Source of the DNA: Bacteroidota bacterium
GTDB lineage: Bacteria > Bacteroidota > Bacteroidia > Bacteroidales > SKPS01
DNA length: 64,000 nt
Assembly: GCA_022709695.1 (NCBI GenBank)
Contig: JAKLII010000002.1
Location: 90,955-154,954 of the forward strand
Direction: 5' to 3'
Shown: piece after piece, positions 16,988 through 33,418 of the stretch
How the letters are laid out: each line of letters begins with the position of its first letter
Numbering within the stretch: the stretch's first letter is position 1
Translations under genes and position numbers: made by a program
Notes under the pieces: generated by a model
Databases searched by the model: none
Told to the model about the DNA's origin: nothing
What the model saw: the letters and a program-made list of their open reading frames with translations, nothing else

Positions 16988-16988
16988 T

Positions 16989-17723
16989 CTACTTTTTAAC
17001 CACCAGCTTGCGGGTGAGGATCGTCTGCTGATTCCGTATCAGGGAGTAAAAATAGATACCGCTTTCAACAGTTGAAAGATCAAAGTCGATCAGTCCTTCA
17101 CCCGGCGGAAGGGGAGCTTCACGAACCGTCCGACCGGCAAAATCCCTGAGAGTCAGCACCAGGGGATTTTTATCGTCTTGATGGGTATAGGCGAATGTAA
17201 CTTTATCAGTGGCCGGATTTGGGTAAGCGGCTGTTATTTCCGGGACCACGGAGGGGAAGTCATTTACCCCTATTGTACCGGTAAAACGTACCGTAAAGGA
17301 GATCGTATCATTGGTATTGGCAACATTGAAGAAAGTGTACCTGATGATCGTAGTACCTGTGTTGTTCAGCGGATAATAATCACCTGTGAAACTTGTATCC
17401 CAGCCACCTCCGGCAGCAAGATTGACAGATCCTACAGATACCATCGTAGATCCACCATAGCAATTGCCTGCAAAGCAGAAAGTATTCGTGGAATTCAGTA
17501 CCGTGTATATCTCATCTTTGCGAACTTTCACCTCAACCGCAGCCGAACTGTTGTTAATAACCTTCGCATCCACGATAATCACGGTGTCAATCTTGCCGGA
17601 AACATCAAGCGTGGTTCCATTGAGAACCGCATTCCCGTGAAAGGTTACACTCAGGCTTTGTGCACCGGCACCCAACGAAAGAACTGAAAAGATGGCTGTA
17701 AACAGAATGGATAGTTTTCTCAT
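16989..17723 (-). CDS. Secreted protein with a T9SS C-terminal sorting domain, unknown function
   Basis: Signal peptide (LSLGAGAQS). Ig-like beta-rich body. The C-terminus YPNPATDKVTFAY...GIYFYSLIRNQQTILTRKLVVKK is a type-A T9SS CTD. Confidence 0.7.
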   Translation of the reverse strand: MRKLSILFTAIFSVLSLGAGAQSLSVTFHGNAVLNGTTLDVSGKIDTVIIVDAKVINNSSAAVEVKVRKDEIYTVLNSTNTFCFAGNCYGGSTMVSVGSVNLAAGGGWDTSFTGDYYPLNNTGTTIIRYTFFNVANTNDTISFTVRFTGTIGVNDFPSVVPEITAAYPNPATDKVTFAYTHQDDKNPLVLTLRDFAGRTVREAPLPPGEGLIDFDLSTVESGIYFYSLIRNQQTILTRKLVVKK

Positions 17724-17777
17724 GCCTTAAAAATTTAGGGGCAATTTACTGCAAAAATTGTGCAAAAAATTCAGGAA

Positions 17778-18569
17778 TTAATTGAGATCAATATGCTGAA
17801 GCCTTGACTGCACAATCTCATCTATCTCACTGTCAACCAATATTCTTCCGCAGTATTCGCAAACAATCACCTTTTTGTGCATCCTGATATCGAGGTGCCT
17901 TTGCGGTGGAATTTTATTAAAACATCCGCCACATGCATCACGCTCAATCTTCACCACGGCCAGTCCGTTCATGGCATTTTTTCTGATTCTTTTATAGGCC
18001 GTTAACAACCTCTCCTCAATCAGCTCGCTGTATTCCTGGGAATGCTTCATCAGAATCTCCTCTTCCCTGGCAGTCTCTGCCACAATCTCCGTGAGTTCCT
18101 TCTTCTTTACTGTCAGATCCTCCTGCCGTTCAAGAAGCTTCTTTTCCGACTCTTCAACAGCAGCTTTTTTAATTTCGAGTTCTGCACTGTGTTCCCGGAT
18201 CTTCTTCTCCTGTAATTGAATTTCAAGTCCCTGAAATTCAATTTCTTTGGTTATTGAATCGTATTCCCGGTTGTTCCTCACGTTCATTTGCTGCTCTTCA
18301 TACCGCTTGATCAGCTGCTCGCACTGTTTGATGGCCTCTCTGCGATCCTTGATCAAACCCTCTATCCGTTCAATATCTTCCCTGTGCCTTGCAAGCCTGG
18401 TCTCCAATCCGGCAATCTCATCCTCCAGATCTTCTACCTCCAGAGGTAGCTCCCCATGCACGGTCTTGATGCGGTCGATCTGCGAATCCACTTTCTGTAA
18501 ACTGTATAACGCAATCAACCGGTCTTCTATTTTTACTTCCTTGCTCTGCGTGGTTTCTTCTTTGCTCAT
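17778..18569 (-). CDS. Coiled-coil protein with a C4 zinc ribbon (COG1579-type), the usual partner of Nif3
   Basis: 263 aa. A long heptad-rich region is followed by CGGC...(x)...CEYCGRIL. It sits immediately downstream of a Nif3-family gene, which is a widely conserved pairing. Confidence 0.7.
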   Translation of the reverse strand: MSKEETTQSKEVKIEDRLIALYSLQKVDSQIDRIKTVHGELPLEVEDLEDEIAGLETRLARHREDIERIEGLIKDRREAIKQCEQLIKRYEEQQMNVRNNREYDSITKEIEFQGLEIQLQEKKIREHSAELEIKKAAVEESEKKLLERQEDLTVKKKELTEIVAETAREEEILMKHSQEYSELIEERLLTAYKRIRKNAMNGLAVVKIERDACGGCFNKIPPQRHLDIRMHKKVIVCEYCGRILVDSEIDEIVQSRLQHIDLN

Positions 18570-18579
18570 TGAATTATAG

Positions 18580-19677
18580 CTATTTATGATATATTATCGG
18601 GTTTCTGAGATGCGCTGAAATATGGCTCGCAAAAGTAGTGAATTTTTTTTGTACTGCTTCCGTAATAATACCTGTCATCAACAGCTCAGTTTCAAAGTGC
18701 CCTGCATCCACCAGTAAAAGACTTTTCCCGTAGTCGGTAAATGCATGGTATTTCAGGTCTGAAGTAATCAGGGCATCCATTCCGAGCCGGATAGCCTTTT
18801 CGATCAGAAAGGACCCTGATCCTCCACACACCCCAACCCTTTTTATTGCTTCACCTTCCCAGCGTGAGTACCTGATCCCTTCCGCACCCAGCTCCTGCTT
18901 GACTTTTTCGATGAATTCAATTACCGGAATTGGTGTTTCCAGTTCACCCCACATCCCGGCTCCCGTATAAGGATCACTGTTCATCATCTGGAATACCTCA
19001 TACGCCACTTCCTCATACGGATGTGCCTTTCTCATGGCATTTACCACTTTTCCTGACAGGTACGAAGGAACCACCATCTCCACCCTGACTTCCCTTCCTG
19101 AATGGAACTCTCCGGGACTGCCAATGTAAGGATCTGAACCTTCAAGCGGTCGGTAGGTTCCGGTCCCTTCTGTGTTGAAACTGCACCGGTCATACTCCCC
19201 GATTCTGCCACCACCAGCCATGAACATGGCCTCACGGACTGAATCCGCAGCAGATTCGGGGCAATAGGTCACAACTTTGTGCAAAGAGCCATCCATCGGG
19301 GAAAGAACCGAAGGCTTTCTGATACCCAGTTTTCCCGCAAGATGATAGTTGAGCCCCCTGGGGGCATTGTCGAAGTTGGTGTGTAAAATGATAATGGCGA
19401 TATGATGCCTGATGGCCATTATGACAGCCCGCTCCACTAAGGTAGACCCTGTAAGTCGCTTCAACCCTTTAAATATCAGCGGATGATGGGCAATCACCAC
19501 ATTGCATCCCTTTTTCACCGATTCCTCAATCGTCCCTTCGGTGATATCCAGGGTAACCAGCACACCGGTGACCTCCGTCTCAGGATCCCCTGTCTGGATA
19601 CCCACATTGTCATAACTCTCCTGAAGCCCTGAAGGGGCAAGTGTTTCGATAAAATCAGCCAATTCACGTACAAGCAT
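18580..19677 (-). CDS. Nif3-like dinuclear metal centre protein (YbgI / GTP cyclohydrolase 1 type 2 family)
   Basis: 365 aa. DNVGIQTG, VIAHHPLIFKGLKRL, ILHTNFD and DAGHFETE are Nif3 metal-ligand blocks. There is an inserted PII-like central domain. Confidence 0.85.
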   Translation of the reverse strand: MLVRELADFIETLAPSGLQESYDNVGIQTGDPETEVTGVLVTLDITEGTIEESVKKGCNVVIAHHPLIFKGLKRLTGSTLVERAVIMAIRHHIAIIILHTNFDNAPRGLNYHLAGKLGIRKPSVLSPMDGSLHKVVTYCPESAADSVREAMFMAGGGRIGEYDRCSFNTEGTGTYRPLEGSDPYIGSPGEFHSGREVRVEMVVPSYLSGKVVNAMRKAHPYEEVAYEVFQMMNSDPYTGAGMWGELETPIPVIEFIEKVKQELGAEGIRYSRWEGEAIKRVGVCGGSGSFLIEKAIRLGMDALITSDLKYHAFTDYGKSLLLVDAGHFETELLMTGIITEAVQKKFTTFASHISAHLRNPIIYHK

Positions 19678-19753
19678 GGGGTCGCAGTTAGAATGGCATC
19701 AAAGATAACATATTGTTACTGATCATCAGGATGCCTGAATGGTAAACTTTATC

Positions 19754-19761
19754 TATATTTG
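19754..19761 (+). promoter_or_regulatory. Candidate -7 box (TATATTTG) for lpxK
   Basis: Exact TAnnTTTG match 45 nt upstream of ATG 19806. No clear -33 element. Confidence 0.3.
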
Positions 19762-19805
19762 CCTTGTAAACAGCATTTTCAATTTTTCGTCAGCCTAACA
19801 AAAGG

Positions 19806-20927
19806 ATGATCCAATTAAGTTTATCAGGGAAAAGGGGATCCGTCTGGATTATTCCCGGCTGGATACTCTGGCCCTTTGCTCTGATGTACGGATTTGTCGT
19901 CAGAATCCGGAATTTATTATTTGACAAGCAGATAATCCGGCCTGCAAGATTTAATATACCGGTTATCCTGATCGGGAATCTGGCTGCGGGTGGAACCGGT
20001 AAGACACCCTGCGTCGATTACGTGGCGACACTTCTGGAAAAGGAGCTGAGGCTTGCTATCCTGAGCCGTGGATATGGGAGAAAAACAAAGGGATTTCATG
20101 TGGCAGAGACTACAAATACCTGGCAGGCTGTCGGCGATGAACCCCTGCAGCTCAAGCTGAAACATCCTGATGTCACTGTGGCGGTAAACGAAAACCGGGA
20201 AGAAGGTATCCGGAATCTCATCGGGGATCCGTTTCAGGCTCAGTGTATCCTTATGGATGACGGATTCCAGCATCGGTGGGTCGCACCGGGTTTAAGTATA
20301 TTGCTTACAGATTACTCAAAACCCTATAGCTCAGATCATCTCCTGCCGATGGGATACCTGAGGGAGCACAGATCCGGGAGTAAACGTGCGGATATCATTG
20401 TGGTAACCAAAGCTCCGCCGGTAAGATCTCCGGTATCGGATAAGGCAATGATACGAAAACTTAAGCCCCTCCCCCACCAGCAGGTATTCTTTTCCTATCT
20501 GTTGTATGGTGATCTGATACCGGCCAATGAAGCTGCATCCCATTGGGGTCAAACTTCCGATGTACATACAGCTCTTTTAATTACAGGAATAGCGAACCCT
20601 GATCCTCTGGCCGACCATCTCAGACTCCTGTTTTCCAACCTTTCTCACCTTAGGTTTCCCGATCACCACCCCTTTTCTGAACGTGATGTAAAAAAGATTA
20701 CAGAAGCCTTTCTTAATCTGTTTCAGAAATCCAAAGTTATTATCACCACTGAAAAGGACATTAGCCGGATGAAACATGGACACGCATTTGGAATGCTCAG
20801 GGATTTTCCGGTTTTTTACATTCCCGTTTCCATGGGATTCCATGAGAATTACCGGGGGCAACATTTTCACCAAACTATCCTGAACTATGTCAGAGAAAGC
20901 AAAAGCAGCGGCGGAGTTGATCAGTAA
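19806..20927 (+). CDS. lpxK: Tetraacyldisaccharide 4'-kinase (lipid A biosynthesis)
   Basis: The P-loop context VILIGNLAAGGTGKTP, SRGYGRKTKG, and MDDGFQH are LpxK signatures. Confidence 0.85.
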   Translation: MIQLSLSGKRGSVWIIPGWILWPFALMYGFVVRIRNLLFDKQIIRPARFNIPVILIGNLAAGGTGKTPCVDYVATLLEKELRLAILSRGYGRKTKGFHVAETTNTWQAVGDEPLQLKLKHPDVTVAVNENREEGIRNLIGDPFQAQCILMDDGFQHRWVAPGLSILLTDYSKPYSSDHLLPMGYLREHRSGSKRADIIVVTKAPPVRSPVSDKAMIRKLKPLPHQQVFFSYLLYGDLIPANEAASHWGQTSDVHTALLITGIANPDPLADHLRLLFSNLSHLRFPDHHPFSERDVKKITEAFLNLFQKSKVIITTEKDISRMKHGHAFGMLRDFPVFYIPVSMGFHENYRGQHFHQTILNYVRESKSSGGVDQ

Positions 20928-21702
20928 GAATCTCTCTTTAAAATATGATGCTGCTATCATTTTGGGCAGCGGCCTGAGCCATCTGGCCGATCAGATTAAC
21001 ATTATTGCTACCATTGCCTATTCCGAAATCCCCGGATTTCCCGAATCGACCGTACCAGGCCATGAAGGAAAGCTTGTTGCAGGAATACTTGCCGGAAAGA
21101 CGATACTGGCCCTGAAAGGCCGGTTCCACTATTATGAGGGATATACCATGCAGGAAGTGGTATTTCCGATCAGGGTACTGCACCATTTAGGCATCAACAC
21201 CCTCATCCTCTCCAATGCTGCAGGAGGAACCAATCCGGAATTCAGAATCGGCGATATCATGCTGATCCGTGACCATATCAATCTGATGGGTACAAATCCG
21301 CTGATCGGAAAAAACGATGAAACGCTCGGACCCAGGTTCCCGGATATGAGCCAGGTATACGACCCGGGCCTCCTTCAGGCGGCCCGGGAGGTTGCGATAG
21401 GTTCACACATATCACTGAAAGAAGGGATTTACGCAGCTGTAACCGGCCCGGTATATGAAACACCTGCTGAATACAGGTATATCCGGATCCTCGGAGCCGA
21501 TGCTGTGGGAATGTCTACCGTACCGGAAGCCATTGCAGCCCGGCATTTGGGTATGCGACTGATGGCATTATCGGTTATTACCGACCTGGGTGTTGAAGGG
21601 AAAATTCAAAAGATAACCCACGAAGAAGTCCTTACGGCTGCTGCTGCCTCTGAACCTTTCATCACCACGATCATCAAAGGGGTATTAAAAGGAAATTCCT
21701 GA
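20887..21702 (+). CDS. Purine nucleoside phosphorylase (trimeric PNP/PunA type)
   Basis: ILGSGL, GHEGKLVAGILAGKTILALKGRFHYYEGY, SNAAGG, and GMSTVPEAIAARHLGM. The start overlaps the lpxK 3' end by 41 nt. Confidence 0.85.
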   Translation: MSEKAKAAAELISKNLSLKYDAAIILGSGLSHLADQINIIATIAYSEIPGFPESTVPGHEGKLVAGILAGKTILALKGRFHYYEGYTMQEVVFPIRVLHHLGINTLILSNAAGGTNPEFRIGDIMLIRDHINLMGTNPLIGKNDETLGPRFPDMSQVYDPGLLQAAREVAIGSHISLKEGIYAAVTGPVYETPAEYRYIRILGADAVGMSTVPEAIAARHLGMRLMALSVITDLGVEGKIQKITHEEVLTAAAASEPFITTIIKGVLKGNS

Positions 21703-21728: not shown

Positions 21729-23204
21729 CTAGTAGGCCCTTGCAAATACAACCCGTTGTTTCGAAGGTTTGCCCGAATATACGCAGACCCCATCTTCCGG
21801 ATCCCCTTCCAAAGGAATCAACCGGATCGTTGCCTTGGTTTCGGCTTTGATTTTCTCCTCCGTTTCAGGTGTCCCGTCCCAGTGGGCATACAGAAAACCT
21901 CCCTTGTTCTCCAGGGTTTCCTTGAATTCATTCCATGAATTGACTTTGTGGATATTGGCTTCCCTGAAGGCTTTTGCTTTTGCCAGAAGGTTGTCCTGAA
22001 TCGTTTCGAGAAGTTGTTCGATATGGCCGGTGATCCCTTCCATCGGTAAAATCTCCTTGGTAAGTGTATCCCTTCGTGCAAGTTCCACGGTATGGTTCTC
22101 TAGGTCTTTTGGACCCAGTGCAATCCTCAGAGGTACACCCCTGAACTCATGCTCAGTGAATTTATATCCGGGTTTATGGGTATCACGGTCATCAAATTTG
22201 ATGCGGATTCCACAGGCTTTGAAATCTTTCACCATTTTTTCTGCTACTGCTCTGATGGCTGAGAATTGCTCTTCATTTCTGAAGATCGGTACAATCACTA
22301 CCTGTATCGGAGCTAGCCGGGGGGGCAATACAAGTCCGTGTTCATCGGAATGGGCCATGATCAGGGCTCCCATAAGACGGGTAGAAACCCCCCAGGAAGT
22401 AGCCCAGACATATTCCAGCTGATTCTGCCTGTTGAGGAACTTCACATCAAACGCTTTTGCAAAATTCTGCCCCAGAAAATGGGAAGTTCCGGCCTGAAGT
22501 GCTTTGCCATCCTGCATCAAGGCCTCAATACAGTAGGTGTCCTCAGCCCCGGCAAATTTTTCTGATTCGGTCTTTACACCTTTCAGAACCGGTATTGCCA
22601 TCCATTTCTCCGCAAAATCCGCATAAATACCAAGCATCTGCCTGGTTTCCTCCACTGCCTCTTCACGGGTGGCGTGGGCTGTATGTCCTTCCTGCCATAG
22701 AAACTCAGCAGTGCGCAGGAAGAGGCGGGTACGCATCTCCCACCTGACCACATTGGCCCACTGATTAACAAGGATCGGTAAATCGCGGTAGGATTGAATC
22801 CATCCCCTGTAGGTATCCCAGATGATTGTCTCTGAGGTGGGGCGAACAATGAGCTCCTCTTCCAAACGGGCATCCGGATCTACAACGAGTCCGGTTTGGT
22901 CATCCGACTGTTTCAGACGGTAATGGGTCACAACGGCACACTCTTTGGCAAATCCTTCCACATGTTCCGCTTCGCGACTGAAAAACGATTTGGGGATAAA
23001 GATGGGAAAGTAGGCATTGCTATGCCCGGTCTCCTTAAACATGCCATCAAGGGTATCTCTTATCTTTTCCCAGATGGCATAACCGTAAGGTTTGATTACC
23101 ATACAGCCTCTTACTGCACTGTTCTCCGCAAGATCGGCCTTCACTACCAGATCGTTATACCATTGGGAATAACTCTCTTCCTTCGATGATAAAATCTTCG
23201 CCAT
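21729..23204 (-). CDS. proS: Proline--tRNA ligase (archaeal/eukaryote-like class II type)
   Basis: 491 aa. [51 protein letters not shown], and the C-terminal zinc-domain-like tail are all typical of Bacteroidota ProRS. Confidence 0.9.
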
Positions 23205-23252
23205 AGATGTTATGGTATAGTTATTGTTAATTTATTCGCGCTGCAAAAACGG

Positions 23253-23286
23253 CAAATTTACTATATTCAACGGTAACGAGAACAAA
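23253..23286 (-). promoter_or_regulatory. Candidate proS promoter (minus strand: TTTG at 23286-23283, 22-nt spacer, TAAATTTG at 23260-23253)
   Basis: Read on the reverse complement. The spacer is 1-3 nt longer than the usual 19-21. Confidence 0.3.
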
Positions 23287-23315
23287 AACAAATCAATAAT
23301 TCAGGAGGAATCCCC

Positions 23316-25205
23316 ATGAAAACACTTATCACAATGACTGTTGCCTCCCTGTTGCTTTTCCTCACCTCCTGTAGCTCAACTTATCTGGCTACAGGAAGTG
23401 ATGATGTGTATTATACTCCCAACAGGAATGCAGAAACCACCGTGACTATTGTATCACCATCCACCGGGCAGAACAGTTATGATGTAACCGAAGGATCAAA
23501 ACAAGTCCAGAATGTTACCCCTGTTACATCCCCTGATCCGGAAAAGGATACGGTAGTAAGCGAGTATTATGTTGATGAAGAAGGCAATACCTATATAACC
23601 AACAATTACTACGGAGACGACTACGGCTACGACGATTATTACGACTATACCTACGCTTCCAGGATCCGCAGGTTCCACACAGGCTATTACACCGGTTTCG
23701 GATATTACCATAATTACTACACTGATCTGTATTGGTATACCTATGATCCTTTCTACTATGGAGTAAGCATTTATTACGGCTATCCCTGGTGGTACCCCTC
23801 CTATTACACCTGGTACAGGCCTTTTAACTGGTGCTGGGGATATGGGTACGGATACGGTTATTATCCCTTCTCGTATGGCTATTATCCCTGGTACTACGGA
23901 CCCGGTTATGGATACGGCTATTATGCCGGGTACTGGGATGGCTATTACGACGGCTACTGGGGTAACTACTATAATTATTACTATAACAGTTACGACGGAA
24001 CCAACGGTTATTACTACGGACCCCGCGATTATATCACTTCAGGCGATGGAACCGGAAGGAGTGACAATTCCTGGTTTGGATCAAAGTATGAACAGGCCAT
24101 TGCATCTGAAATCCGGGCAGTTCCCGAAACATCTGTCGGAAACATCAGTGAATCTCAAACACCAAACGGAAATGGCGGAAATACTGTAAGAACGGATCCC
24201 TCCGTGATCAGTTCCCAGGAAGATAAAGCTCCCGGGAACCAAAATGTACGGCCAGCTGCAACGGCACAAACATCTGAAGCCAACCAGACTGAATCAGCTA
24301 TGACCAACCAGCCGGCCGGTGAAACCCGCCAGGAAAAACCGCAGGGTGCACAGGCAGAGACAGCACCGGGAACCTCCCGTCAGGTTGCTACGACTCCAAA
24401 TGCGCAGGAGCAGGCGCCTGCCGTCAGGCCTCAGTACCAGAGACCGGTTACCAATACACCCGTAAGAACCAGGACCTACACCCCTCCGGTGAGCAACAAT
24501 CCAACGCCAACAAGGCAATATCCTGATCTTGGAAGGACAGAATCTGCAGGTGCATCACAGACTCCGGCTGCGAATCCTTCTCAAAGAGAACCACGTGCTG
24601 TTCAACCCGCTCAAAATGCACCAGCCACAACAAGGCCCGTCAGCACCGAACCGGTAAAACCCTATACAAAACCCAGAACCGAGAATGCTCCACCTACCTA
24701 CCGTCAGCCTGGGACTACCCAGGAATATAAGGCTCCGGGCAGCAACCAGGGAAGAGTAACTCCACAAAATAATCAAAACAAAACCTACACCAGGCCTTCC
24801 GCCGGCAACGATCAGCATAGCACCTATGGCAGGCCTTCCGGTTCAACCCCGGCAACCCCGGCACCGTCCAGAACCCAGCAGGGATACAGGCAGGAAAGCA
24901 GACCATCCCAGCCATACAATCCACCTGCCGTAAGGTCCAGGTCTGAATCATCCCCATCCTCCGGCAGCGGTTCATCGCGTCCATCCGGATCCAGCTACCA
25001 AAGTTCTCCCCGTTCCTCCGGAAACACCTCCGGCAGCCACTATTCCTCAGGAAGCTCATCCCGGTCTTCAGGTAGCAGCTATTCTTCCGGAAGCTCTTCC
25101 CGGTCATCCGGCAGCAGCTATTCCTCAGGCAGCTCCTCCCGGTCATCCGGTAGCAGCTCCTCTCGTTCTGGCGGAAGCTCATCATCCTCCGGGCGCAGAA
25201 ACTAA
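23316..25205 (+). CDS. Low-complexity lipoprotein: a Tyr/Gly/Trp-rich zone, a Pro/Thr/Gln-rich zone and a Ser-rich repeat tail; unknown function
   Basis: 629 aa. It has a signal peptide with a lipobox (LLLFLTSCSS). In residues ~95-238 I count about 54 Tyr in about 144 residues (YGYGYGYYPFSYGYYPWYYGPGYGYGYYAGYWDGYYDGYWGNYYNYYYN). This is followed by roughly 300 aa rich in P/T/Q/A/R, then the tail (YSSGSSSRSSGSS)x3. It is the only long ORF at this position. The frame is supported by an ordinary N-terminal ~90 aa and by in-frame repeats. Confidence 0.6.
   Translation: MKTLITMTVASLLLFLTSCSSTYLATGSDDVYYTPNRNAETTVTIVSPSTGQNSYDVTEGSKQVQNVTPVTSPDPEKDTVVSEYYVDEEGNTYITNNYYGDDYGYDDYYDYTYASRIRRFHTGYYTGFGYYHNYYTDLYWYTYDPFYYGVSIYYGYPWWYPSYYTWYRPFNWCWGYGYGYGYYPFSYGYYPWYYGPGYGYGYYAGYWDGYYDGYWGNYYNYYYNSYDGTNGYYYGPRDYITSGDGTGRSDNSWFGSKYEQAIASEIRAVPETSVGNISESQTPNGNGGNTVRTDPSVISSQEDKAPGNQNVRPAATAQTSEANQTESAMTNQPAGETRQEKPQGAQAETAPGTSRQVATTPNAQEQAPAVRPQYQRPVTNTPVRTRTYTPPVSNNPTPTRQYPDLGRTESAGASQTPAANPSQREPRAVQPAQNAPATTRPVSTEPVKPYTKPRTENAPPTYRQPGTTQEYKAPGSNQGRVTPQNNQNKTYTRPSAGNDQHSTYGRPSGSTPATPAPSRTQQGYRQESRPSQPYNPPAVRSRSESSPSSGSGSSRPSGSSYQSSPRSSGNTSGSHYSSGSSSRSSGSSYSSGSSSRSSGSSYSSGSSSRSSGSSSSRSGGSSSSSGRRN
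25041..25157 (+). repeat. Three tandem 39-bp in-frame units encoding YSSGSSSRSSGSS
   Basis: The units are 25041-25079, 25080-25118 and 25119-25157. They differ only at a few mostly synonymous positions. Degenerate Ser-rich copies flank them. Confidence 0.8.
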
Positions 25206-25239
25206 TCCTGTTTCAGACTAATACAAACAATCAATCCTC

Positions 25240-26691
25240 ATGAAGAATAAAGCTTTAATCATCGCCATGCTGGGTATGTTACCCCTTTTTACCTTTGCCC
25301 AGCTTCCGTTTGATGCCTTAAGATTTTCAATGACAGGCCCGGGAGGTACTGCCCGGTACCTCGCCACCGCCGGAGCCTTCGGAGCCATCGGGGCTGATTT
25401 TTCAACCCTCAGTGCCAATCCCGCCGGAATCGGGCTCTTCAGAACTACTGAATTTACCCTAACACCGGGATTAACCTATAATTCAGCCACTGCAAATTAT
25501 GGTGGAATGCTCACCGAAGATGACAAATACAAGCTGAATATGCACAATGCCGGAGTGGTATTTGCTTTTGGGAACAGATCCGTTAAAAATGGTAGCTGGA
25601 AAAGATTTCAGTTTGGGTTTGGAATGAACCAGCTGGCTGATTTTTCAGGCAACACCACCATCGAAGGTGATAATCCGTATGGTTCAATCCTGATGGAGTA
25701 TCAGAAAAAAGCTGCCGGAATTGCTCCTAAAAACCTTGATCTTTATGACACCAAGCTGGCATGGGACACTTACCTGTTTCCGGATACATTTTCAGGATCG
25801 AATGGAATGATCCAATATACCTCTGCCATTCCAAATGGTGGTGTAAGGCAAATGAAGTACATTGAAAGAAAGGGAGGTATGAACGAGGTTGTCCTGAGCC
25901 TGGGTGGAAACTATAACGACAGGATCTACCTGGGAGGCACCATTGGATTTCCCACCCTCCACTACCGGGAAGATGCCAGTTATCGTGAAGTGGATGCAGG
26001 AGATACCATTGCAACTTTCAAGTCATTGACCATCAATGATTACCTGAACACTTCGGGGAGTGGTATCAATTTCAAATTCGGAATCATTGCCAGGCCGTTC
26101 GACTGGATCAGGATCGGTGGCGCGATTCATACACCCACCTTTTTCAGTTTACACGATGAATACAGCAGGAGCATGAAGCACAGGAACGACGTTGGGCAGG
26201 AACTTTTTGCCAGCTCGCCGACAGGATACTATGATTACAGCCTTCGTACCCCTATGAAGGCCATTGTCAGCCTTGGTTTCATCATTGGTAAGTTTGGTTT
26301 TATAGGCATTGATTACGAAGCCGTCGACTATTCTGCCGCCAGGTTCGAGACCAAAAACGACCATTTTACTGATGTGAACAGGGTAATCCGCGAAGACTAC
26401 CATGAAGCTTCCAACCTTAGAATCGGTGGTGAGTTAAACCTCAATCCCATCCGCCTGCGTGCCGGTTACGCTCTTTATGGTTCACCCTATACCAATGGAC
26501 TCAACGATTTCGAAAAGAGCACCCTGGCATTTGGCCTTGGCTTCAAGGATAAGAACTACTTCCTGGATTTCTCCTGGGTGATGACCTCTTACGGTGAGAA
26601 CTATTACCTGTATGATCCGGAGATGGTTTTACCTGCGCAGATCGACAATATGTCAACAGGTATGATCATGACGCTGGGATTTAAATTGTAA
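25240..26691 (+). CDS. Outer-membrane beta-barrel protein (FadL/OMPP1-like)
   Basis: 483 aa with a signal peptide (LPLFTFAQ). The N-terminal motif GGTARYLATAGAFGAIGADFSTLSANPAGIGLF resembles the FadL/PorV-superfamily hatch region. It shows an alternating beta-strand pattern throughout. It lies 35 nt downstream of the low-complexity lipoprotein gene. Confidence 0.5.
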   Translation: MKNKALIIAMLGMLPLFTFAQLPFDALRFSMTGPGGTARYLATAGAFGAIGADFSTLSANPAGIGLFRTTEFTLTPGLTYNSATANYGGMLTEDDKYKLNMHNAGVVFAFGNRSVKNGSWKRFQFGFGMNQLADFSGNTTIEGDNPYGSILMEYQKKAAGIAPKNLDLYDTKLAWDTYLFPDTFSGSNGMIQYTSAIPNGGVRQMKYIERKGGMNEVVLSLGGNYNDRIYLGGTIGFPTLHYREDASYREVDAGDTIATFKSLTINDYLNTSGSGINFKFGIIARPFDWIRIGGAIHTPTFFSLHDEYSRSMKHRNDVGQELFASSPTGYYDYSLRTPMKAIVSLGFIIGKFGFIGIDYEAVDYSAARFETKNDHFTDVNRVIREDYHEASNLRIGGELNLNPIRLRAGYALYGSPYTNGLNDFEKSTLAFGLGFKDKNYFLDFSWVMTSYGENYYLYDPEMVLPAQIDNMSTGMIMTLGFKL

Positions 26692-26710: not shown

Positions 26711-26750
26711 AAAAGAGCTGCCCCATTCCCGGAGCAGCTCTTTTCTTTTA
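26711..26750. terminator. Bidirectional rho-independent terminator between convergent genes
   Basis: AAAAGAGCTGC (26711-26721) pairs with GCAGCTCTTTT (26734-26744) across a 12-nt loop. It is followed by TTTTCTTTT and preceded by an A-run, so it can work on both strands. Confidence 0.7.
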
Positions 26751-26763: not shown

Positions 26764-28956
26764 TTATTTCACAGTGAACTTGATGGTGCGGGAGGTTCCG
26801 CCAAAATCGGCCCTTAAAATATACACTCCGGCAGGCAGGCTGGTCACATCAACCTGATGCTGATGTTCTCCAACGGGCATGGTTCCAAGTTCGGCCGAAG
26901 AGACTCTTTCGCCAAGGAGGTTGAGGACTTCCATCCTAACATTGCAGGATTTCACCAGCATAAACTCAATGTTGGTAACATTCTCGGCAGGGTTGGGATA
27001 GAGGGCAGCAAAGTCTCCGTTCAGCTGTTGCTCCTCGATAGCATCTACAAAACCAAGATGGTATTCAGCAGCATTTAAAATAGGCCTCTGGTTCGGATCA
27101 GAATTGTATTTCTGCACAAGGAAGACCACTTTCAGACGGTTGGGGTTGATCCCGGAAGGTACCGTATAGGTATACTGCTTATTGAAAATGTCATTTTTAT
27201 TAACCGTTGCAGGAATTACGCCTGAGGTGCCCCACGGACCACCCAGCATTGCGCGTAATACATGCCTGTGCTTGTACCCAATAATGGGATTGCCGGCACC
27301 ATAATAAGGGTGACCTGCAACGGTGTTGTAATAGTTTGCCTGATTATAGGCAGAACCGGTTCCGGTAACACTGTCCTCAACGATGTATGCATTTACCCTG
27401 AAATCTCCTGAAGCACCAGAATAGAATTTGGCGGACATTTCAATGGTGATCACCTTTCCGGCGCCATAGGTCGCAGTTCCGGTTACAAGAACAGGTACAA
27501 TGTCATTCAGCCTTTCAGCGGTTTTTGCTGCCCAAACCGACCTTGACATCCCAACAGCTGCCTGATCAGGGAAAAGCACCCTGTCAACATAGCCGTTTGG
27601 ATATCCCTGCGCATAGGCACTGTTTACGGCGTTGCCATCGGTAAACGCCATTCCGTCGCCATTATGAATAGCTACACCTATGGTTTTTCCGGGGTTATTG
27701 GCCAGAATGCCAGCCAGTACAACGGATCCATCAGGGCAATACTGGCACCATGCTCCGGTAGCCTGCTCAATTACAACTGTTTTTGCTACGATCGTATCGA
27801 AAATTGAAACCACCTTGCTCAGGGTGTCATTTGTGTTGTCAGCGTCCGTCTGTCCATTTGGACTTGCAGCCCAGACCTTGATGGTGAAGTTTCCGGTGGT
27901 TGAGGGGGTCCAGTTAATATTATGGGTAAAGGCATAGGTCTGATTGGTCGTAGTGGACAATCCTGTTACATTCTGGGTCTGGACAGGACCGTTATCGACC
28001 TGGTAGTTAAGGCTGACATCGTTCAGGGTGATCAGTCCCTTATTCTTGATTACACCCTTGATCTGCATCGGATTATTAACCACTGCATTGGTTGGGAAAG
28101 TAAGGCTCTCCATGGCTACATCGAATGAATCGGGCTGAATGGAAGCCAGGTCATAGCCAAAAAGGACGGCATTCTGAACGACACCGCCGAGTGTAACCGT
28201 ACCAGGAATAAGATTGGGGGTGATAAACAGGCCACCACCACTGGTAGCTCCTGTGGGATTTACATCGTCGGCGGTGTAATGCATCAGACCTGTTGACAAA
28301 CCAGTTGTCACACTAATCTGGTGGATTTCAGCAGGAAAACTTCCGCCGGTTATAATCCAAATGTATGGACCACCTGGAGTAACCGTATCGAACGCAGAAC
28401 CAGCCATAGAGGTCTGGCCATGGACTGTAGAGAGAATAGTTTGCATCACAGCACCTGTAGTTTTATTGAGGAGCACCAGATTTGAGCCCCAGGCCCCTAC
28501 CCAGAGCCCATCGTTGATCGGGTCGTAGCAGATGTTACGTGCAGTTACACCAGTTGCAGAAGAAGGGATTGTGATAGTACTCACCAATGTCTGAGTGCTA
28601 AAATCCATCTTATAGATGGCTGATGCATTGGCACCTCCGTAAAAATAGGTCCCGTCATATGCAAGATCCCTGATAGCAGAAACTCCGGTAATTTTGAAAG
28701 AAGATACGAGTACACCGGCGGTAGTATATTTCCAGATGGTATCGCCATTCCACTTTGTAACATAGATATGGGTTCCATCGGATTCAGCACCATAGGATCC
28801 ACTTTGTGAGATCGTAGTATGGGCAAACTGTGCAACCCATGCTTTTGAGCTTACGGGTTTAATGCCATTGAAAGGCACATTGGAGGATTCAGACTGGGCA
28901 TTCAGCAGCATGCCGAAAACCGTTACCAAGAGCAAGGTACATAGAATTCTTTTCAT
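26764..28956 (-). CDS. T9SS cargo protein: N-terminal beta-propeller-like region, CARDB-like Ig domain, CxxC thioredoxin-like (Omp28-related) domain, T9SS CTD
   Basis: 730 aa with a signal peptide (MLLNAQS). CARDB-like segment (MQIKGVIKNKGLITLNDVSLNYQVDNGPV...NTNDT). Thioredoxin-like segment VVIEQATGAWCQYCPDG...GYPNGYVDR...YKHRHVLRAMLGGPWG. CTD LYPNPAENVTNIEF...GVYILRADFGGTSRTIKFTVK. Confidence 0.65.
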   Translation of the reverse strand: MKRILCTLLLVTVFGMLLNAQSESSNVPFNGIKPVSSKAWVAQFAHTTISQSGSYGAESDGTHIYVTKWNGDTIWKYTTAGVLVSSFKITGVSAIRDLAYDGTYFYGGANASAIYKMDFSTQTLVSTITIPSSATGVTARNICYDPINDGLWVGAWGSNLVLLNKTTGAVMQTILSTVHGQTSMAGSAFDTVTPGGPYIWIITGGSFPAEIHQISVTTGLSTGLMHYTADDVNPTGATSGGGLFITPNLIPGTVTLGGVVQNAVLFGYDLASIQPDSFDVAMESLTFPTNAVVNNPMQIKGVIKNKGLITLNDVSLNYQVDNGPVQTQNVTGLSTTTNQTYAFTHNINWTPSTTGNFTIKVWAASPNGQTDADNTNDTLSKVVSIFDTIVAKTVVIEQATGAWCQYCPDGSVVLAGILANNPGKTIGVAIHNGDGMAFTDGNAVNSAYAQGYPNGYVDRVLFPDQAAVGMSRSVWAAKTAERLNDIVPVLVTGTATYGAGKVITIEMSAKFYSGASGDFRVNAYIVEDSVTGTGSAYNQANYYNTVAGHPYYGAGNPIIGYKHRHVLRAMLGGPWGTSGVIPATVNKNDIFNKQYTYTVPSGINPNRLKVVFLVQKYNSDPNQRPILNAAEYHLGFVDAIEEQQLNGDFAALYPNPAENVTNIEFMLVKSCNVRMEVLNLLGERVSSAELGTMPVGEHQHQVDVTSLPAGVYILRADFGGTSRTIKFTVK

Positions 28957-28991: not shown

Positions 28992-31010
28992 TTACTGAAT
29001 AATGAGTTTTGATGATTCGGAGTGGTTAAAACCGGAGAGGCGAACAAAATACAAACCCTTAGCCAGGTTGGTCAGATCAAATTCATTTTGAAAAACCCCT
29101 ACTGAAGTGGCATTTCTGGATAAGGTGCGGATGGTCTTTCCTGAAGAAGAGATCAGCTCCAACGTAACCATGCCCGGTTCTGCAACGAGGTACTGTACCT
29201 GGGTCGATTCTTTTGCAGGGTTCGGGAACAGTCCAAGGATATGTTTCTGTGAGGTGCTTTCATCAATGCTGTTGGTTTGGGTGGAAATGGCTGACTGCAA
29301 CACCTTTTTGGTTGCATCATCCTGTACAAAAACCACCACCTGCAGGTTGCTGAAGTTTTCGATATTGTTGGTTGTGGGGAATGTATATGTACGTGTGATG
29401 GTTTTAAAAACCGCCTTCTGGAGCTGCCCGAGATTTACCCCTGCTGCATCAGGGATGAATTTGCGGAAGGTGTTGTAGAAGATGGTTTCACCGTTGGATC
29501 CCACATTGCCGGTTGTGGTTTTTTCCACTACGGCAACCCTCAATACCAGGGTACCGGAAGTATAATTCTCAAAGGGCAGCACCGATGCTGTTACCGAAAA
29601 TGTGTTTCCAACCCTGGTGTGGGTAGGATTGAACATCATATAGGATTTGTCCCAGAGGTCATTATACTGGATTGTATCGATATAGGTAGGGTCAACGATG
29701 TTGCCGTTCACATACATATCCGGTAGTGAATCAACCTCGTAGTAGGTAGCCCGTGTACCCCCTTCGGCGGTATAGTAAGGATCGCCTGCATCGGGGTAGT
29801 TCATGGCGTATTTGATTAAGGCGTAATCATTCGGATATTTATCCAGAACGGATTTAAGGTTGATGTTGCCGTCTTTACAGGGGATGCAGGATGAAGAGGT
29901 AAACTCCTCAAAGAGCCGGAGCTTGGGAGTAAAGGCATTGGAAACCTCCACAATCTTGAACATGGTATCGTTGCTGTGATTTTCATCGCCACCCCCATTG
30001 ATGTTGGAAGCCCAGTATTTAAAGTGGTACACTCCAGTATCAGGGGGCATCCAGATGCTGTCGTGGATAAACCACTCTTCACCATAGGCCGGAATGTCAT
30101 AGGCAGCACCTGTAAGGTTACAGGTTTTCACAGGGCCATTGTTCACGCTGTAGTTCATATCATAACTGGTAACTGCAGTTCCGGTGTAATTTTTTACTTT
30201 TCCTTTCACATCAAAGGGGCCTGCATTGAGGATCACGAAGTTGCTCATCTGCAACCAGGAAACTCCAAGATCGCGGGAGGGGGGAGAGCCTTTGATGAAT
30301 GTATAGTATTTATTATCTACGGCCGTTTTGCTTTGACCGGCCACGGTGCCAAGATTAGGGGAACCGTTAACCATGACAGCAGTAGTTCCGTTTATCTGTA
30401 ACCCAATGGTCAGGGTAGGCTGGCAGAAGCCCTTGTCTGAACAACGCTGATCGACCACATAGATGTTGTTGGTAGTCTCCTCAAGCACGATACTGTAATA
30501 AAGATAGCACCACTGGGTATTATATCCAGGGATGTTATAGGTGTTGAACTGGATCCAGTGCTGCCGGTTGGGAGCGACCCCGAAGGTTTTGGTTACAATA
30601 CGGTCGTTGCAGTTTGGTCCGCCGGTCCAGGAAACTCCCCATACGCAAACCGATTTGTCGGGGATCCCGGGATCCGGTAAAATGTTATTGGAGGAACCCG
30701 GAGGGCTTCCGGCAGTAGTTGTAAAGGTTAAAACCCCGGTATTTGATACCAGGTACTGGGTTACAGGAGCCCCGTTGAACTGGAAGGTAAAAGGGATGTT
30801 CTGCACGGCAGTCCATGCAGGAGAAGCATTCATAGGGTCAATATTCGTCCAGCCCGGCATCAGTCCGTCTCCGAAGGGTTCCTCGGTATTGGCATTCAGG
30901 TTACCGGGGTTACCGGATGGATTGATGTTTGCAGGAATGTAATAATACTGGGACCATACACTTCCCAACAGTAACACATTCATTGCCAGAAAAAGTAATA
31001 ATCTTTTCAT
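28992..31010 (-). CDS. T9SS cargo protein: unknown N-terminal domain, CARDB-like domain, CxxC thioredoxin-like (Omp28-related) domain, T9SS CTD
   Basis: I set the start at MKRLLLFLAMNVLLLGSVWSQ (31010). The ORF-track start at 31049 adds 13 non-signal residues. CARDB-like segment (FDVKGKVKNYTGTAVTSYDMNYSVNNGPV...HSNDT). Thioredoxin-like segment LRLFEEFTSSSCIPCKDG...LPDMYVNG. CTD LFPNPAKESTQVQY...GLYFVRLSGFNHSESSKLIIQ. Confidence 0.65.
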   Translation of the reverse strand: MKRLLLFLAMNVLLLGSVWSQYYYIPANINPSGNPGNLNANTEEPFGDGLMPGWTNIDPMNASPAWTAVQNIPFTFQFNGAPVTQYLVSNTGVLTFTTTAGSPPGSSNNILPDPGIPDKSVCVWGVSWTGGPNCNDRIVTKTFGVAPNRQHWIQFNTYNIPGYNTQWCYLYYSIVLEETTNNIYVVDQRCSDKGFCQPTLTIGLQINGTTAVMVNGSPNLGTVAGQSKTAVDNKYYTFIKGSPPSRDLGVSWLQMSNFVILNAGPFDVKGKVKNYTGTAVTSYDMNYSVNNGPVKTCNLTGAAYDIPAYGEEWFIHDSIWMPPDTGVYHFKYWASNINGGGDENHSNDTMFKIVEVSNAFTPKLRLFEEFTSSSCIPCKDGNINLKSVLDKYPNDYALIKYAMNYPDAGDPYYTAEGGTRATYYEVDSLPDMYVNGNIVDPTYIDTIQYNDLWDKSYMMFNPTHTRVGNTFSVTASVLPFENYTSGTLVLRVAVVEKTTTGNVGSNGETIFYNTFRKFIPDAAGVNLGQLQKAVFKTITRTYTFPTTNNIENFSNLQVVVFVQDDATKKVLQSAISTQTNSIDESTSQKHILGLFPNPAKESTQVQYLVAEPGMVTLELISSSGKTIRTLSRNATSVGVFQNEFDLTNLAKGLYFVRLSGFNHSESSKLIIQ

Positions 31011-31166
31011 ATTTCGGAAATTTTGGGGTGCAATGTACAAATAATACACATCAACGATACAAAAAAATCAAAATTAAAAAGCACTGTAAATCAATACATA
31101 ATTTTAGCAAATGGGTTTAGTGACCCGGAAAGGAAACTGCACCCGTTTCATCATTCATTAAATCTC

Positions 31167-31756: not shown

Positions 31757-33418
31757 ATGCCGGCAAGATACTGGATGGCACTGATATTTCTGATGGTATT
31801 TACATCGGGATTGAAAGCACAGTTAACAGGGGGAACCATCAAGGGGAGTTTTCAAACTGATTTTCAGTACTATCAGGATGATTCCATACTGGGAATCAAT
31901 GATTCGACATTGCAGGGAAGGAGAACCGGATCGAACACCTTTCTGAATCTTACCTACAGCAGCAATAATTTAGAGGCCGGGTTAAGGATGGAGAGTTTCC
32001 TTCCGTCGATGACCGGATATGACCAGCGGTACACCGGGGCCGGCATTCCGTACAAGTATCTGAGGTTCCATGATGACATCTGGGATATAACAGCAGGTAA
32101 CTTTTATGAGCAGTTCGGTAACGGGATGGTATTCAGAAGCTACCAGGACTGGACTCTTGGGATCGACAATTCCGTAGAGGGAATCCGGATCAAGAGCAAG
32201 CCCTTTAAAGGGGTGTTTATCACGGCTATATCCGGTGTACAACGGTATTACTGGGATCGGTGGGACAAGGATGATGACCGTGGGATCATTACAGGAGCAG
32301 ATGCCGAAGTTGATCTGAATGATGCTCTTCCATTTTTTGGTAAGAAAGTCAAAGTGATTGCCGGGGGAAGTTTTATCACAAAAAGCCAGAAAGACAATCA
32401 TCCCGTTTACAAGGTACCCAAACAGGTGGCCGCCTTTGCGGGGAGGCTGAATCTTTCTTATGGCCCGGTAACGCTTCTGGGTGAGTATGCCTATAAAATC
32501 AACGATCCATCGGCAGAAAACGGAATGATCTACAAACCAGGAGAGGCCATTTTCCTGCAGGCTTCCTATGCCGTTAAAGGATTTTCTTTCTCTGCCGGGG
32601 TAAAGCGGCTTGACAACATGGGTTTCAGGAGCGACCGTAATGCAGGATTGAATGATCTGACGATTAATTATCTGCCTTCCATTACCAAACAACACATTAA
32701 CAGTTTGCCTGCAAAATATCCCTATGCCACTCAGGTTCAGGGAGAAATGGGATTTTCCCTCAACCTTGGTTACAAAATCAAAAAGGGGACATGGCTGGGG
32801 GGTAAATATGGCACTGACCTGTCGGCAACCTTTTCAAGACTCACAGATATCACCCGTCTTCCTTTAGACAGCATTACTCCGGTCGGACAGGCGGGCACCC
32901 TTGGATATACCACCGATTTTTTCAGGAGCGGTGAAAAATTCTTCGAAGATATCTCTCTTGAACTGCAGCGGAAAATCACCAAAGACCTGAAAATATCCTT
33001 TATCTATGCCTGGATATTTTACAATATCGGAGTAATTGAAGGGCATCTGGGCGAAGAGAATGTGGTTTCGCACAATGCGGTGGCAGATATCACCTGGAAA
33101 GTCACCTCCAGAAAAGCACTGCGGTTTGAAGTACAACACCTTCTTACCCATGAGGATGACGGTGACTGGATGGCAGGGCTGATAGAATTCACCCATCACG
33201 GATTTTTCGCCTCGGTGAGCGACCAGTGGAATTACGGCAACCCGGAGGCTTCAAAACAGATCCATTACCTGATGGTTGCATGCGGATTGTCCAAAGGTGC
33301 CACCCGGATTGCAGCCTCATACGGCAGGCAGAACGACGGGATTCTCTGCATTGGAGGCGTTTGCAGGTACGTTCCTGCTATCAGTGGTTTCTCAGTAACC
33401 CTTACTTCATCATTTTAA
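31757..33418 (+). CDS. Outer-membrane beta-barrel protein of unknown function (I recall similar proteins annotated DUF6029; unverified)
   Basis: 553 aa with a signal peptide (SGLKAQ). It shows an alternating aromatic/glycine strand pattern and a terminal Phe (VTLTSSF), typical of BAM substrates. Confidence 0.45.
   Translation: MPARYWMALIFLMVFTSGLKAQLTGGTIKGSFQTDFQYYQDDSILGINDSTLQGRRTGSNTFLNLTYSSNNLEAGLRMESFLPSMTGYDQRYTGAGIPYKYLRFHDDIWDITAGNFYEQFGNGMVFRSYQDWTLGIDNSVEGIRIKSKPFKGVFITAISGVQRYYWDRWDKDDDRGIITGADAEVDLNDALPFFGKKVKVIAGGSFITKSQKDNHPVYKVPKQVAAFAGRLNLSYGPVTLLGEYAYKINDPSAENGMIYKPGEAIFLQASYAVKGFSFSAGVKRLDNMGFRSDRNAGLNDLTINYLPSITKQHINSLPAKYPYATQVQGEMGFSLNLGYKIKKGTWLGGKYGTDLSATFSRLTDITRLPLDSITPVGQAGTLGYTTDFFRSGEKFFEDISLELQRKITKDLKISFIYAWIFYNIGVIEGHLGEENVVSHNAVADITWKVTSRKALRFEVQHLLTHEDDGDWMAGLIEFTHHGFFASVSDQWNYGNPEASKQIHYLMVACGLSKGATRIAASYGRQNDGILCIGGVCRYVPAISGFSVTLTSSF

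Follow-up and report, generated by a model that had tools for sequence, protein, structure and literature searches.

A tyrosine-rich lipoprotein and a FadL-superfamily outer-membrane barrel encoded as a conserved gene pair in Bacteroidota

A 64,000-nucleotide stretch of the genome of a Bacteroidota bacterium (Bacteroidales, SKPS01; GenBank assembly GCA_022709695.1, contig JAKLII010000002.1, positions 90,955 to 154,954), hereafter the window, contains two adjacent genes on the forward strand, the first encoding a 629-residue lipoprotein of extreme tyrosine content and the second a 483-residue outer-membrane barrel of the FadL superfamily. A preliminary description made from the sequence alone had singled out this pair as a self-contained unit and proposed that the lipoprotein forms a surface matrix or adhesive with a dedicated barrel partner. 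Here we report that the two genes are co-inherited in Bacteroidia and related classes and that the tyrosine-rich zone is a conserved domain, and we weigh the possible arrangements of the two products in the cell envelope.

The locus

The features of the locus are collected in Table 1. Both open reading frames (ORFs), the lipoprotein signal LFLTSC and the peptide quoted in the preliminary description are present where it had placed them; the intergenic gap is 34 nucleotides (nt) rather than the 35 given there. The pair was also said to be bracketed by a divergent proS promoter region and a bidirectional terminator, which is indeed the case, with a spacer of 111 nt on one side and a hairpin with a folding free energy of -24.2 kcal/mol on the other (z = -4.2; none of 200 shuffled sequences was equally stable). 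The hairpin lies between the barrel gene and a convergent gene for a type IX secretion system (T9SS) cargo protein and is common to both. It was found by folding, a scan for the terminator consensus having overlooked it because its stem contains a mismatch.

Table 1. Coordinates of the gene pair, its parts and its flanking elements in the window
Feature	Position	Strand	Basis or remark
Tyr-rich lipoprotein gene, 629 residues	23316..25205	+	ORF; 352 homologs
Signal peptide and lipobox MKTLITMTVASLLLFLTSC, lipid-bearing Cys19	23316..23372	+	read from sequence
N-terminal tail after the Cys, SSTYLATGSDDVYYTPN	23373..23423	+	conserved; candidate barrel-docking segment
Tyr-rich core domain, residues 83-262	23562..24101	+	alignments, profile search
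Disordered net-basic P/T/Q/A/R-rich region with repeated Y-[S/T]-x-P motifs	24102..24935	+	composition
Ser/Gly/Arg tail ending in SGRRN	24936..25202	+	includes 39-nt tandem repeat
FadL-superfamily outer-membrane barrel gene, 483 residues	25240..26691	+	ORF; homologs, AlphaFold2, Foldseek
proS (prolyl-tRNA synthetase)	21729..23204	-	Pfam ProRS-C_1, tRNA-synt_2b, HGTP_anticodon; divergent neighbour of the pair
Divergent intergenic region, 111 nt	23205..23315	.	contains proS -7 box and AGGAGG
Terminator hairpin with A-run and T-run flanks, bidirectional	26711..26744 (about)	.	folding

Within the spacer, proS has a -7 box of the Bacteroidota type (TAAATTTG, 23253-23260, minus strand). No canonical -7 box (TAnnTTTG) was seen on the plus strand; a sigma-70 promoter scan is uninformative for Bacteroidota. 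The sequence AGGAGG stands at 23303-23308, 7 nt 5' of the lipoprotein ATG. Such a perfect match is unusual, Bacteroidota genes mostly having no Shine-Dalgarno sequence, and the barrel gene has none. Two further ORFs that overlap the lipoprotein gene, 24715-25185 on the minus strand (156 residues) and 23842-24189 on the plus strand (115 residues), are by-products of its low-complexity coding sequence and not genes.

A conserved tyrosine-rich lipoprotein family

Homologs of the lipoprotein are all unnamed and all from Bacteroidota, and in the 54-56 that were aligned the order of parts is constant: lipobox, N-terminal tail, variable linker, Tyr-rich core, disordered region and Ser-rich tail. The lipobox places the Cys at residue 19, a position at least 90% conserved, and its pattern recurs in 54 of 56 family members; with its signal peptide and, after it, the lipobox Cys, the protein is by pattern a substrate of signal peptidase II (SPII). 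The tail that follows has the family consensus C-[ST]-[ST]-x-Y-x5-Y-D-D-[VI]-Y-Y-S, in which D29, D30 and Y32 are conserved in at least 90% of sequences.

The Tyr-rich zone, for which the preliminary description gave about 54 Tyr in about 144 residues, proved to hold 52 among the 144 residues from 100 to 243, so that the zone is as described and the count was about right; residues 91-250 contain 55 Tyr, which amounts to 34% Tyr, together with 16% Gly and nine Trp. The core begins with a β-hairpin (EYYVDEEGNTYITNNYY), followed by DDYYDYxYxxRIRRFH, YYxxYYTxxYWYxYDPxxxGxSIYxGYxWW and a variable aromatic-Gly insert, after which come the period-4 repeats GYWxGYYDGYW, then YYYNSYDxxxxYYGPR and an FGxxYE helix. 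Blocks recognisable across the family are GNTYITNNYY, DDYYDYxYxxRIRRFH, YYTNxYWYxYDP, GxSIYxGY, GYWNGYW, YYNSYD, YYGPR and FGxxYE, and the family alignments contain the invariant positions Y113, R119, T136, Y141, P145, S151, Y153 and G235. The spacing between Tyr residues peaks at an offset of four (GY-x-x repeats) and not of two, so that the core has no simple β-strand alternation, and on this ground an amyloid-type β-strand pattern was rejected.

Across more than 50 species the reading frame, the succession of domains and individual residues are preserved, at identities of 35-80%. A profile built from the core and run against 1.84 billion representative proteins matched 1138 clusters at E ≤ 1e-3, 679 at E ≤ 1e-10 and 197 at E ≤ 1e-30, and in all of the best 150 matches the core lies at about residues 65-300 of proteins of 230-660 residues, that is, in one architecture. 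The Tyr-rich zone is thus a conserved domain with invariant positions and not low complexity arisen by chance. An AlphaFold2 model of residues 1-277, built from the 54-sequence alignment, contains only a hairpin at 83-95 and a helix at 254-267, the Tyr-rich zone scoring 32-45 in predicted local distance difference test (pLDDT). Since the core is conserved by position and has no predicted fold as a monomer, these observations suggest that it folds on a partner or on the membrane, or that it self-assembles.

The C-terminal half agrees with the preliminary description, both the P/T/Q/A/R-rich middle and the Ser-rich repeat tail being borne out by composition and by Tandem Repeats Finder. Residues 251-560 (about 310 residues) consist of 14% Pro, 12% Ser, 12% Thr, 10% Ala, 10% Gln and 8% Arg, and the sequence of this region differs between species. 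Its YxxP motifs are nonetheless far in excess of expectation, with 370 observed in 47 family members against 47 expected from shuffles (about eightfold, or about eight per protein); Y-[S/T]-x-P motifs at such a density are a pattern typical of multivalent short linear motifs. The final 69 residues (561-629) are 59% Ser and include a 39-nt repeat present in 3.3 copies at 25029-25158. A Ser-rich tail with a basic end is found in nearly all members, the end being RR in 30 of 56 and otherwise also RK, GR, NR or HR; GGRR is one such ending.

No Pfam domain, enzymatic or other, was detected in the lipoprotein, none of the 54 aligned family members matches any Pfam family, and NCBIfam gave no match for the window lipoprotein. 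Together with the lack of a Pfam match for the barrel, this bears out the earlier statements that the pair has no enzymatic domain and that no characterised system has such a composition. Searches for cultured or named homologues, by protein comparison (in one case starting from a Prolixibacteraceae barrel) and by cluster look-up, returned only "hypothetical proteins" from metagenomes and metagenome-assembled genomes (MAGs).

The partner is a barrel of the FadL fold

The barrel, which has 2457 homologs, consists of a signal peptide (residues 1-20), a mature N-terminus at the invariant Gln21, a hatch segment and a barrel proper at about residues 71-482. Among 23 sequences compared, the hatch is the most conserved part, with invariant Gln21, R28, R39 and N60-P61-A62-G63, and thus contains the NPA motif. 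The AlphaFold2 model (mean pLDDT 82, predicted template-modelling score 0.77) has the FadL-type barrel fold with an N-terminal hatch, and its top Foldseek matches in the Protein Data Bank (PDB) are Bacteroides thetaiotaomicron BamG (BtBamG, E = 7e-17), Escherichia coli FadL (EcFadL, 1.6e-16) and TodX (1e-13), with PgBamG, FjBamG, a Pseudomonas FadL homologue, TbuX and CymD also among them. The 26 best matches are all FadL, TodX, TbuX, CymD or BamG (E from 7e-17 to 6e-11, template-modelling score (TM) 0.48-0.65), whereas the match to PorV (8gl6_F) is far weaker (E = 3.7e-5, TM 0.35-0.44).

Profile searches place the protein less precisely. The window barrel has no Pfam match at E ≤ 1 and remains below the gathering threshold of PF03349 (Toluene_X), a family matched weakly by 14 of the 23 barrel relatives (best 6.8e-11). 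Its sole NCBIfam match is to BamG (NF053685), with 24.8 bits against an equivalog cutoff of 250 bits (E = 1e-5) and over residues 194-439 only, and the PorV and PorQ models (NF033709, NF033711, NF052325) gave no match at E ≤ 1. Weak matches among the 23 relatives are spread over PorV/PorQ_fam (19, best 1e-10), BamG (7), PorV2 (7) and PorQ (3), and searches of the PDB by sequence, with the barrel and with the family profile as queries, gave no meaningful match. The protein therefore has a FadL fold that resembles BamG, FadL and TodX about equally and reaches the threshold of no subfamily, in keeping with the FadL/PorV-superfamily assignment made earlier. A Slam-type (DUF560) translocator was considered and rejected, as there is no Pfam match, no DUF560 or TPR domain and no periplasmic domain in the model, and the best folds are FadL-type. 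One homologue with 49% identity (P0293) is deposited in a MAG labelled "Chlamydiia bacterium", probably through a binning error, the rest of the family being from Bacteroidota.

The two genes are inherited together

Eighty loci were fetched by way of the barrel, from Bacteroidales, Lentimicrobiaceae, Marinilabiliales, Saprospiraceae, Sphingobacteriia and other lineages. Of the 76 whose upstream sequence was long enough for the comparison, about 70 encode a lipoprotein of 400-700 residues, 50-80 of them Tyr, directly upstream of the barrel gene and in the same orientation; across loci the gap has a median of 76 nt. In 68 of 80, proS is adjacent and divergent. Most commonly the wider layout is proS (reverse), lipoprotein and barrel (forward), Zn-ribbon protein and NIF3 (reverse), lpxK and pnp (forward), so that proS, NIF3 and lpxK are recurrent neighbours of the pair; the window and its closest relative have a rearranged layout in which proS, lipoprotein and barrel are still together. 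Searches begun from the lipoprotein side recovered the same layout in a 4.5-Mb genome, in a Flavobacteriales MAG and in two other lineages.

Between Tyr core and barrel, the matrices of pairwise distances correlate (r = 0.40), and the partial correlation given proS is 0.43, a value reached in none of 500 permutations, whereas core and proS give r = 0.09; this is modest evidence that core and barrel may have co-evolved. The synteny, the searches from the lipoprotein side and a correlation of divergence beyond that with proS support the earlier view of the two genes as a self-contained, co-inherited unit with a dedicated barrel partner, of which proS is a conserved divergent neighbour and not a functional part. 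None of the three grounds that the preliminary description had named for abandoning its finding holds: relatives keep the Tyr-rich frame, the two genes stay in synteny, and the barrel is no ordinary free-standing FadL. The finding therefore stands.

Orientation of the lipoprotein

Surface lipoproteins of Bacteroidota have acidic residues among the six positions that follow the lipid-bearing Cys (PMC12578637). Acidic residues are absent from +1 to +6 in all 54 family members, an acidic pair being fixed instead at +10 to +12 in 52 of them. That the rule applies in these lineages follows from a related genome (L083), in which the surface lipoprotein BamH (11670-12980, minus strand; PF14092), encoded by a separate gene, has KKEEEI directly after its lipobox (CKKEEEI, with the lipid-bearing Cys). 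The missing export signal, in line with the published classification of a probable counterpart in Flavobacterium johnsoniae (see below), argues for a lipoprotein that probably faces the periplasm, and the surface location proposed in the preliminary description is not upheld; a role as matrix, adhesin, dityrosine-linked material or condensate is speculative.

The same BamH gene lies about 4 kb downstream of the pair in that genome, beyond NIF3 and glmS. An identification of the window lipoprotein with BamH was rejected, an hhalign comparison with the genuine BamH having aligned only the lipobox with a probability of 17%. The identification of the whole pair as BamG-BamH was rejected likewise, as the barrel fails the BamG model, none of the 54 lipoproteins matches the BamH family PF14092, and BamH has a gene of its own beside the pair in L083.

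A probable counterpart in Flavobacterium johnsoniae

In F. johnsoniae the proline-tRNA ligase gene Fjoh_4939 is accompanied by Fjoh_4940, an SPII lipoprotein with no domain and of unknown function, and by Fjoh_4941, annotated as an OMPP1/FadL/TodX barrel (PMC12045153). Because the triad proS-lipoprotein-barrel is identical, Fjoh_4940 and Fjoh_4941 are likely, on synteny and annotation, to be orthologues of the window pair. Both were detected in membrane proteomes, Fjoh_4940 with about 46 spectral counts compared with 45 for BamG (Fjoh_1412), and depletion of TamL raised Fjoh_4940 2.6-fold and Fjoh_4941 5.6-fold (PMC12045153). Fjoh_4941 was found in outer-membrane vesicles and Fjoh_4940 was not; the latter was classed as periplasm-facing, without an export signal, and of the adjacency of the two genes the authors said only that it "might indicate a functional link" (PMC12045153). 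The other literature searched, including the supplements of two papers on the β-barrel assembly machinery (BAM), makes no mention of either gene, and those supplements contain nothing on other FadL paralogues of B. thetaiotaomicron.

Neighbouring genes

Two tandem paralogues with an Omp28 domain and a T9SS C-terminal sorting domain (26764-28956 and 28992-31049, both on the minus strand; one also with CARDB) converge on the barrel gene and adjoin the pair otherwise only in the closest relative (L001). A functional link between the pair and these cargo genes was rejected, as they are not conserved beside it, and no T9SS genes occur in the conserved neighbourhood of the pair. The organism itself has a T9SS, as indicated by a gene for the first domain of the T9SS plug protein (PF17116, 43656-45020, minus strand), and near the cargo genes lies a full-length member of DUF6029, a family of unknown function (31757-33418, plus strand, E = 1e-171).

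Upstream of proS there is an envelope-biogenesis cluster (10326-21702) that comprises LptD_2 (10326-12938, minus strand), an Amidase_3 N-acetylmuramoyl-L-alanine amidase (13092-14354), an OstA_2/LptD_N-like protein (15467-16987, minus strand), a Zn-ribbon protein, NIF3, LpxK and a PNP-family phosphorylase; the last two have ORFs, lpxK and pnp, that share 41 nt (20887-20927). A conserved gene of about 230 residues without a Pfam match follows proS in several relatives (L081, 3675-4367; L085, 3627-4325; L086, 3666-4358; L087, 3630-4328; all on the minus strand) and is missing from that spot in the window, where pnp abuts proS.

A proposed arrangement and its alternatives

We tentatively propose that the two products form a dedicated outer-membrane complex, in which the FadL-superfamily barrel would serve as a membrane platform for the lipoprotein, a part that BamG plays for BamH, PorV for PorU and PorQ for PorZ. 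The lipoprotein would be lipid-anchored in the inner leaflet of the outer membrane and face the periplasm; its N-terminal tail (Y...YDDVYYS) and its Tyr-rich core, unfolded on its own, either or both docking it to the barrel, would contact the barrel and/or the membrane interface, and the net-basic disordered region, with its approximately eight Y-[S/T]-x-P motifs and then the Ser/Arg tail, would extend into the periplasm and act there as a multivalent scaffold or tether. The pair would have a housekeeping role in outer-membrane or envelope homeostasis. We infer contact from the pairing in about 70 of 76 loci, the co-evolution of core and barrel, the FadL/BamG fold, the BamG-BamH precedent, and the combination in the lipoprotein of a conserved N-terminal tail, variable linker and conserved core with the conserved N-terminus of the barrel (R28, R39). 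The periplasmic orientation would follow from the family-wide lack of an export signal, the BamH control and the classification of Fjoh_4940, and the housekeeping role from proS, NIF3 and lpxK as conserved neighbours. The like layout at Fjoh_4939-4941, and the presence of Fjoh_4940 and Fjoh_4941 in membranes with their rise upon TamL depletion, also speak for the proposal.

Several points weigh against this proposal. Contact between lipoprotein and barrel is deduced and not directly shown, and the absence of an export signal predicts the orientation of the lipoprotein without proving it. As a monomer the Tyr core gives an uninformative model (pLDDT 32-45), so that folding upon binding is deduced from positional conservation, and the correlation of distance matrices is modest and derives from noisy alignments of a low-complexity region. 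The homology of Fjoh_4940 and Fjoh_4941 to the window pair rests on synteny and annotation only, the invariant NPA motif of the hatch would equally fit a working FadL-type channel, and we know of no binding partner or modification that would explain the Y-[S/T]-x-P motifs or the disordered tail.

The last but one of these points leads to the rather doubtful possibility that the barrel is a channel of the FadL type through which hydrophobic molecules pass, for instance long-chain fatty acids or lipids, with the lipoprotein as a periplasmic acceptor, gate or regulator whose aromatic domain would be a sticky sink, taking up amphipathic substrates as they leave the barrel. Such a channel would be compatible with the Foldseek matches to EcFadL and the Pseudomonas FadL homologue (E about 1e-16) and to TodX (1e-13), with the conserved N-terminus and the invariant N60-P61-A62 of the hatch (NPA mutants of FadL have served as functional probes, according to PDB entries), with the Toluene_X matches of 14 of 23 relatives and the recurrence of lpxK, and with the 5.6-fold rise of Fjoh_4941, read by its authors as a FadL homologue, upon depletion of the lipid-transport-linked TamL. 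The window barrel, however, lacks a threshold score on Toluene_X and its family scores equally on PorV/PorQ and BamG models; canonical FadL and TodX operate with no lipoprotein partner; in a substrate-binding partner one would expect a folded pocket and not a low-complexity domain of 34% Tyr and about 370 disordered residues; and the characterised FadL-fold proteins of Bacteroidota (BamG, PorV, PorQ) are docking platforms and not transporters. That these platforms hold surface proteins could instead be taken to mean that the barrel brings the lipoprotein to the cell surface or anchors it there, like BamH on BamG or PorU on PorV, where it would form an adhesive, cross-linkable or gel-like Tyr-rich matrix. 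A composition rich in Tyr, Gly, Trp, Asn and Asp is typical of the loops of outer-membrane proteins and of carbohydrate-binding repeats, an extracellular Tyr/Gly/Asn-rich loop of BamA shows that it occurs on the surface of this phylum, and the strictly placed acidic pair at +10 to +12 might serve as a non-canonical signal. We nevertheless consider a surface matrix unlikely, because the acidic residues at +1 to +6 that BamH of a related genome possesses are found in none of the 54 members, Fjoh_4940 was classed as periplasm-facing and was not found in the vesicles that contained Fjoh_4941, and no tyrosinase, peroxidase or other cross-linking enzyme is conserved near the pair.

A more speculative variant of the housekeeping module, to which we would give little credence, is that the Tyr/Gly-rich domain is "prion-like" and forms a gel, a condensate or a layer of Tyr ladders nucleated at the barrel and tethered to the wall by the Y-[S/T]-x-P and Ser/Arg repeats, or else that the barrel has a lateral gate that passes the aromatic segment or lipid-anchored peptides. 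The lateral opening of the FadL fold, filled by peptide in BamG with the BamH N-terminus wedged between strands, also makes a threaded arrangement conceivable, analogous to that of RcsF in OmpA/C/F, in which the lipoprotein would pass through the lumen or lateral opening with one end outside and the disordered tail in the periplasm, and the pair would sense envelope stress or tether across the membrane. The long, flexible linker that separates N-terminal tail and core, and the response of the F. johnsoniae pair to outer-membrane stress, would suit it; yet the idea is purely one of analogy, the barrel keeps its own conserved hatch, which would be expected to fill the lumen, and no signalling partner is conserved nearby. 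We regard threading as improbable. Finally, tandem repeats, low-complexity DNA and the long spurious antisense ORFs that overlap the gene might suggest that the Tyr-rich ORF is an artefact of misassembled repeats, non-coding sequence or a wrong frame, next to an unrelated barrel. This is refuted by a frame and single residues conserved in more than 50 species and over 1000 clusters, by the preserved synteny and by the detection of the syntenic F. johnsoniae protein by mass spectrometry.

Recent structures of BAM and T9SS components indicate that Bacteroidota reuse FadL-fold barrels as docking platforms, and the pair described here adds a third, apparently housekeeping, module, with a partner unlike any described family in that a conserved domain of one-third Tyr is followed by a long disordered tail that bears motifs. 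With more than 1000 representative clusters, the lipoprotein family is covered by neither a Pfam nor an NCBIfam model; it is linked to proS and lpxK and conserved across Bacteroidia and related classes, and its probable F. johnsoniae counterpart is abundant in membranes and responsive to outer-membrane lipid stress. Should the two products prove to be partners in a complex, it would be an unrecognised component of the Bacteroidota envelope and a rare bacterial case of extreme aromatic low-complexity sequence under strong position-specific selection; a gel, condensate or lateral gate, if confirmed, would represent a new principle of envelope organisation in the phylum. The pair is open to test in the tractable F. 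johnsoniae (Fjoh_4940/4941).

Comparison with known systems

Eukaryotic Tyr/Gly-rich proteins, such as FUS-type domains, resilin, plant glycine-rich proteins and mussel foot proteins, contain GY/YG repeats and motifs of the Y-x-x-P type in stretches rich in Pro, Ser and Thr. Their likeness to the window lipoprotein is one of composition only, without homology and in another compartment, and differs in that the positions of the window protein are conserved and no cross-linking enzymes are evident. Nearer in lineage, the BamA of Bacteroidota has a disordered, Tyr/Gly/Asn-rich extracellular loop 3 of unknown function with 13 Tyr in 38 residues, disordered also in cryo-electron microscopy (PMC12578637). 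It shares with the window lipoprotein the phylum and an extreme composition; it is, however, a 38-residue surface loop of a barrel, whereas the window protein has a conserved domain of 180 residues in a lipoprotein that probably faces the periplasm.

On the barrel side, E. coli FadL and the Pseudomonas proteins TodX and TbuX have the same fold (E from 1e-16 to 1e-13) and an N-terminal hatch with NPA, and Toluene_X is matched weakly by relatives of the window barrel; they differ from it in having only 10-14% identity and no sequence match via the PDB, and in being channels without an obligate lipoprotein partner. The T9SS attachment complexes PorV-PorU and PorQ-PorZ likewise involve FadL-superfamily barrels that hold partners at the outer membrane, and 19 of 23 barrel relatives match their models weakly, but the structural match is much weaker (PorV, E = 3.7e-5) and their partners are proteins with T9SS C-terminal domains, whereas the window partner is a lipoprotein.

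A precedent in design is BamG-BamH. BamG is a FadL-family barrel whose extracellular strands and surface groove dock the surface lipoprotein BamH, as seen in structures from 2025, by its lipidated N-terminal tail, which packs against the barrel, and by a folded end; the lateral opening of BamG is occupied by peptide, with the N-terminus of BamH wedged between two barrel strands, and the genes of the paralogous BamG2-BamH2 form an operon (PMC12611786, PMC12578637). The window pair likewise joins a FadL-fold barrel to a lipoprotein encoded with it, as BamG2-BamH2 are, and BamG chains are among the best structural matches of its barrel (7e-17 to 1e-15). The two barrels nevertheless share only 12-14% identity, the score of 24.8 bits lies far from the 250-bit cutoff and no link of the window barrel to BamA is known; the lipoproteins are unrelated, and BamH has a surface-export signal that the window lipoprotein lacks.

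In genetic layout the probable counterpart is Fjoh_4939-4941, the same triad of proS, lipoprotein and FadL-family barrel, with a lipoprotein that is of the SPII type, has no domain and lacks an export signal; the resemblance of Fjoh_4940 to the window lipoprotein is one of layout and annotation. With BamG-BamH, and with PorV and PorQ as further docking barrels of the FadL type, it is an established design in Bacteroidota to pair a FadL-fold barrel with a partner lipoprotein; within it the clade of the present barrel and, most of all, the family of Tyr-rich lipoproteins are previously undescribed members.

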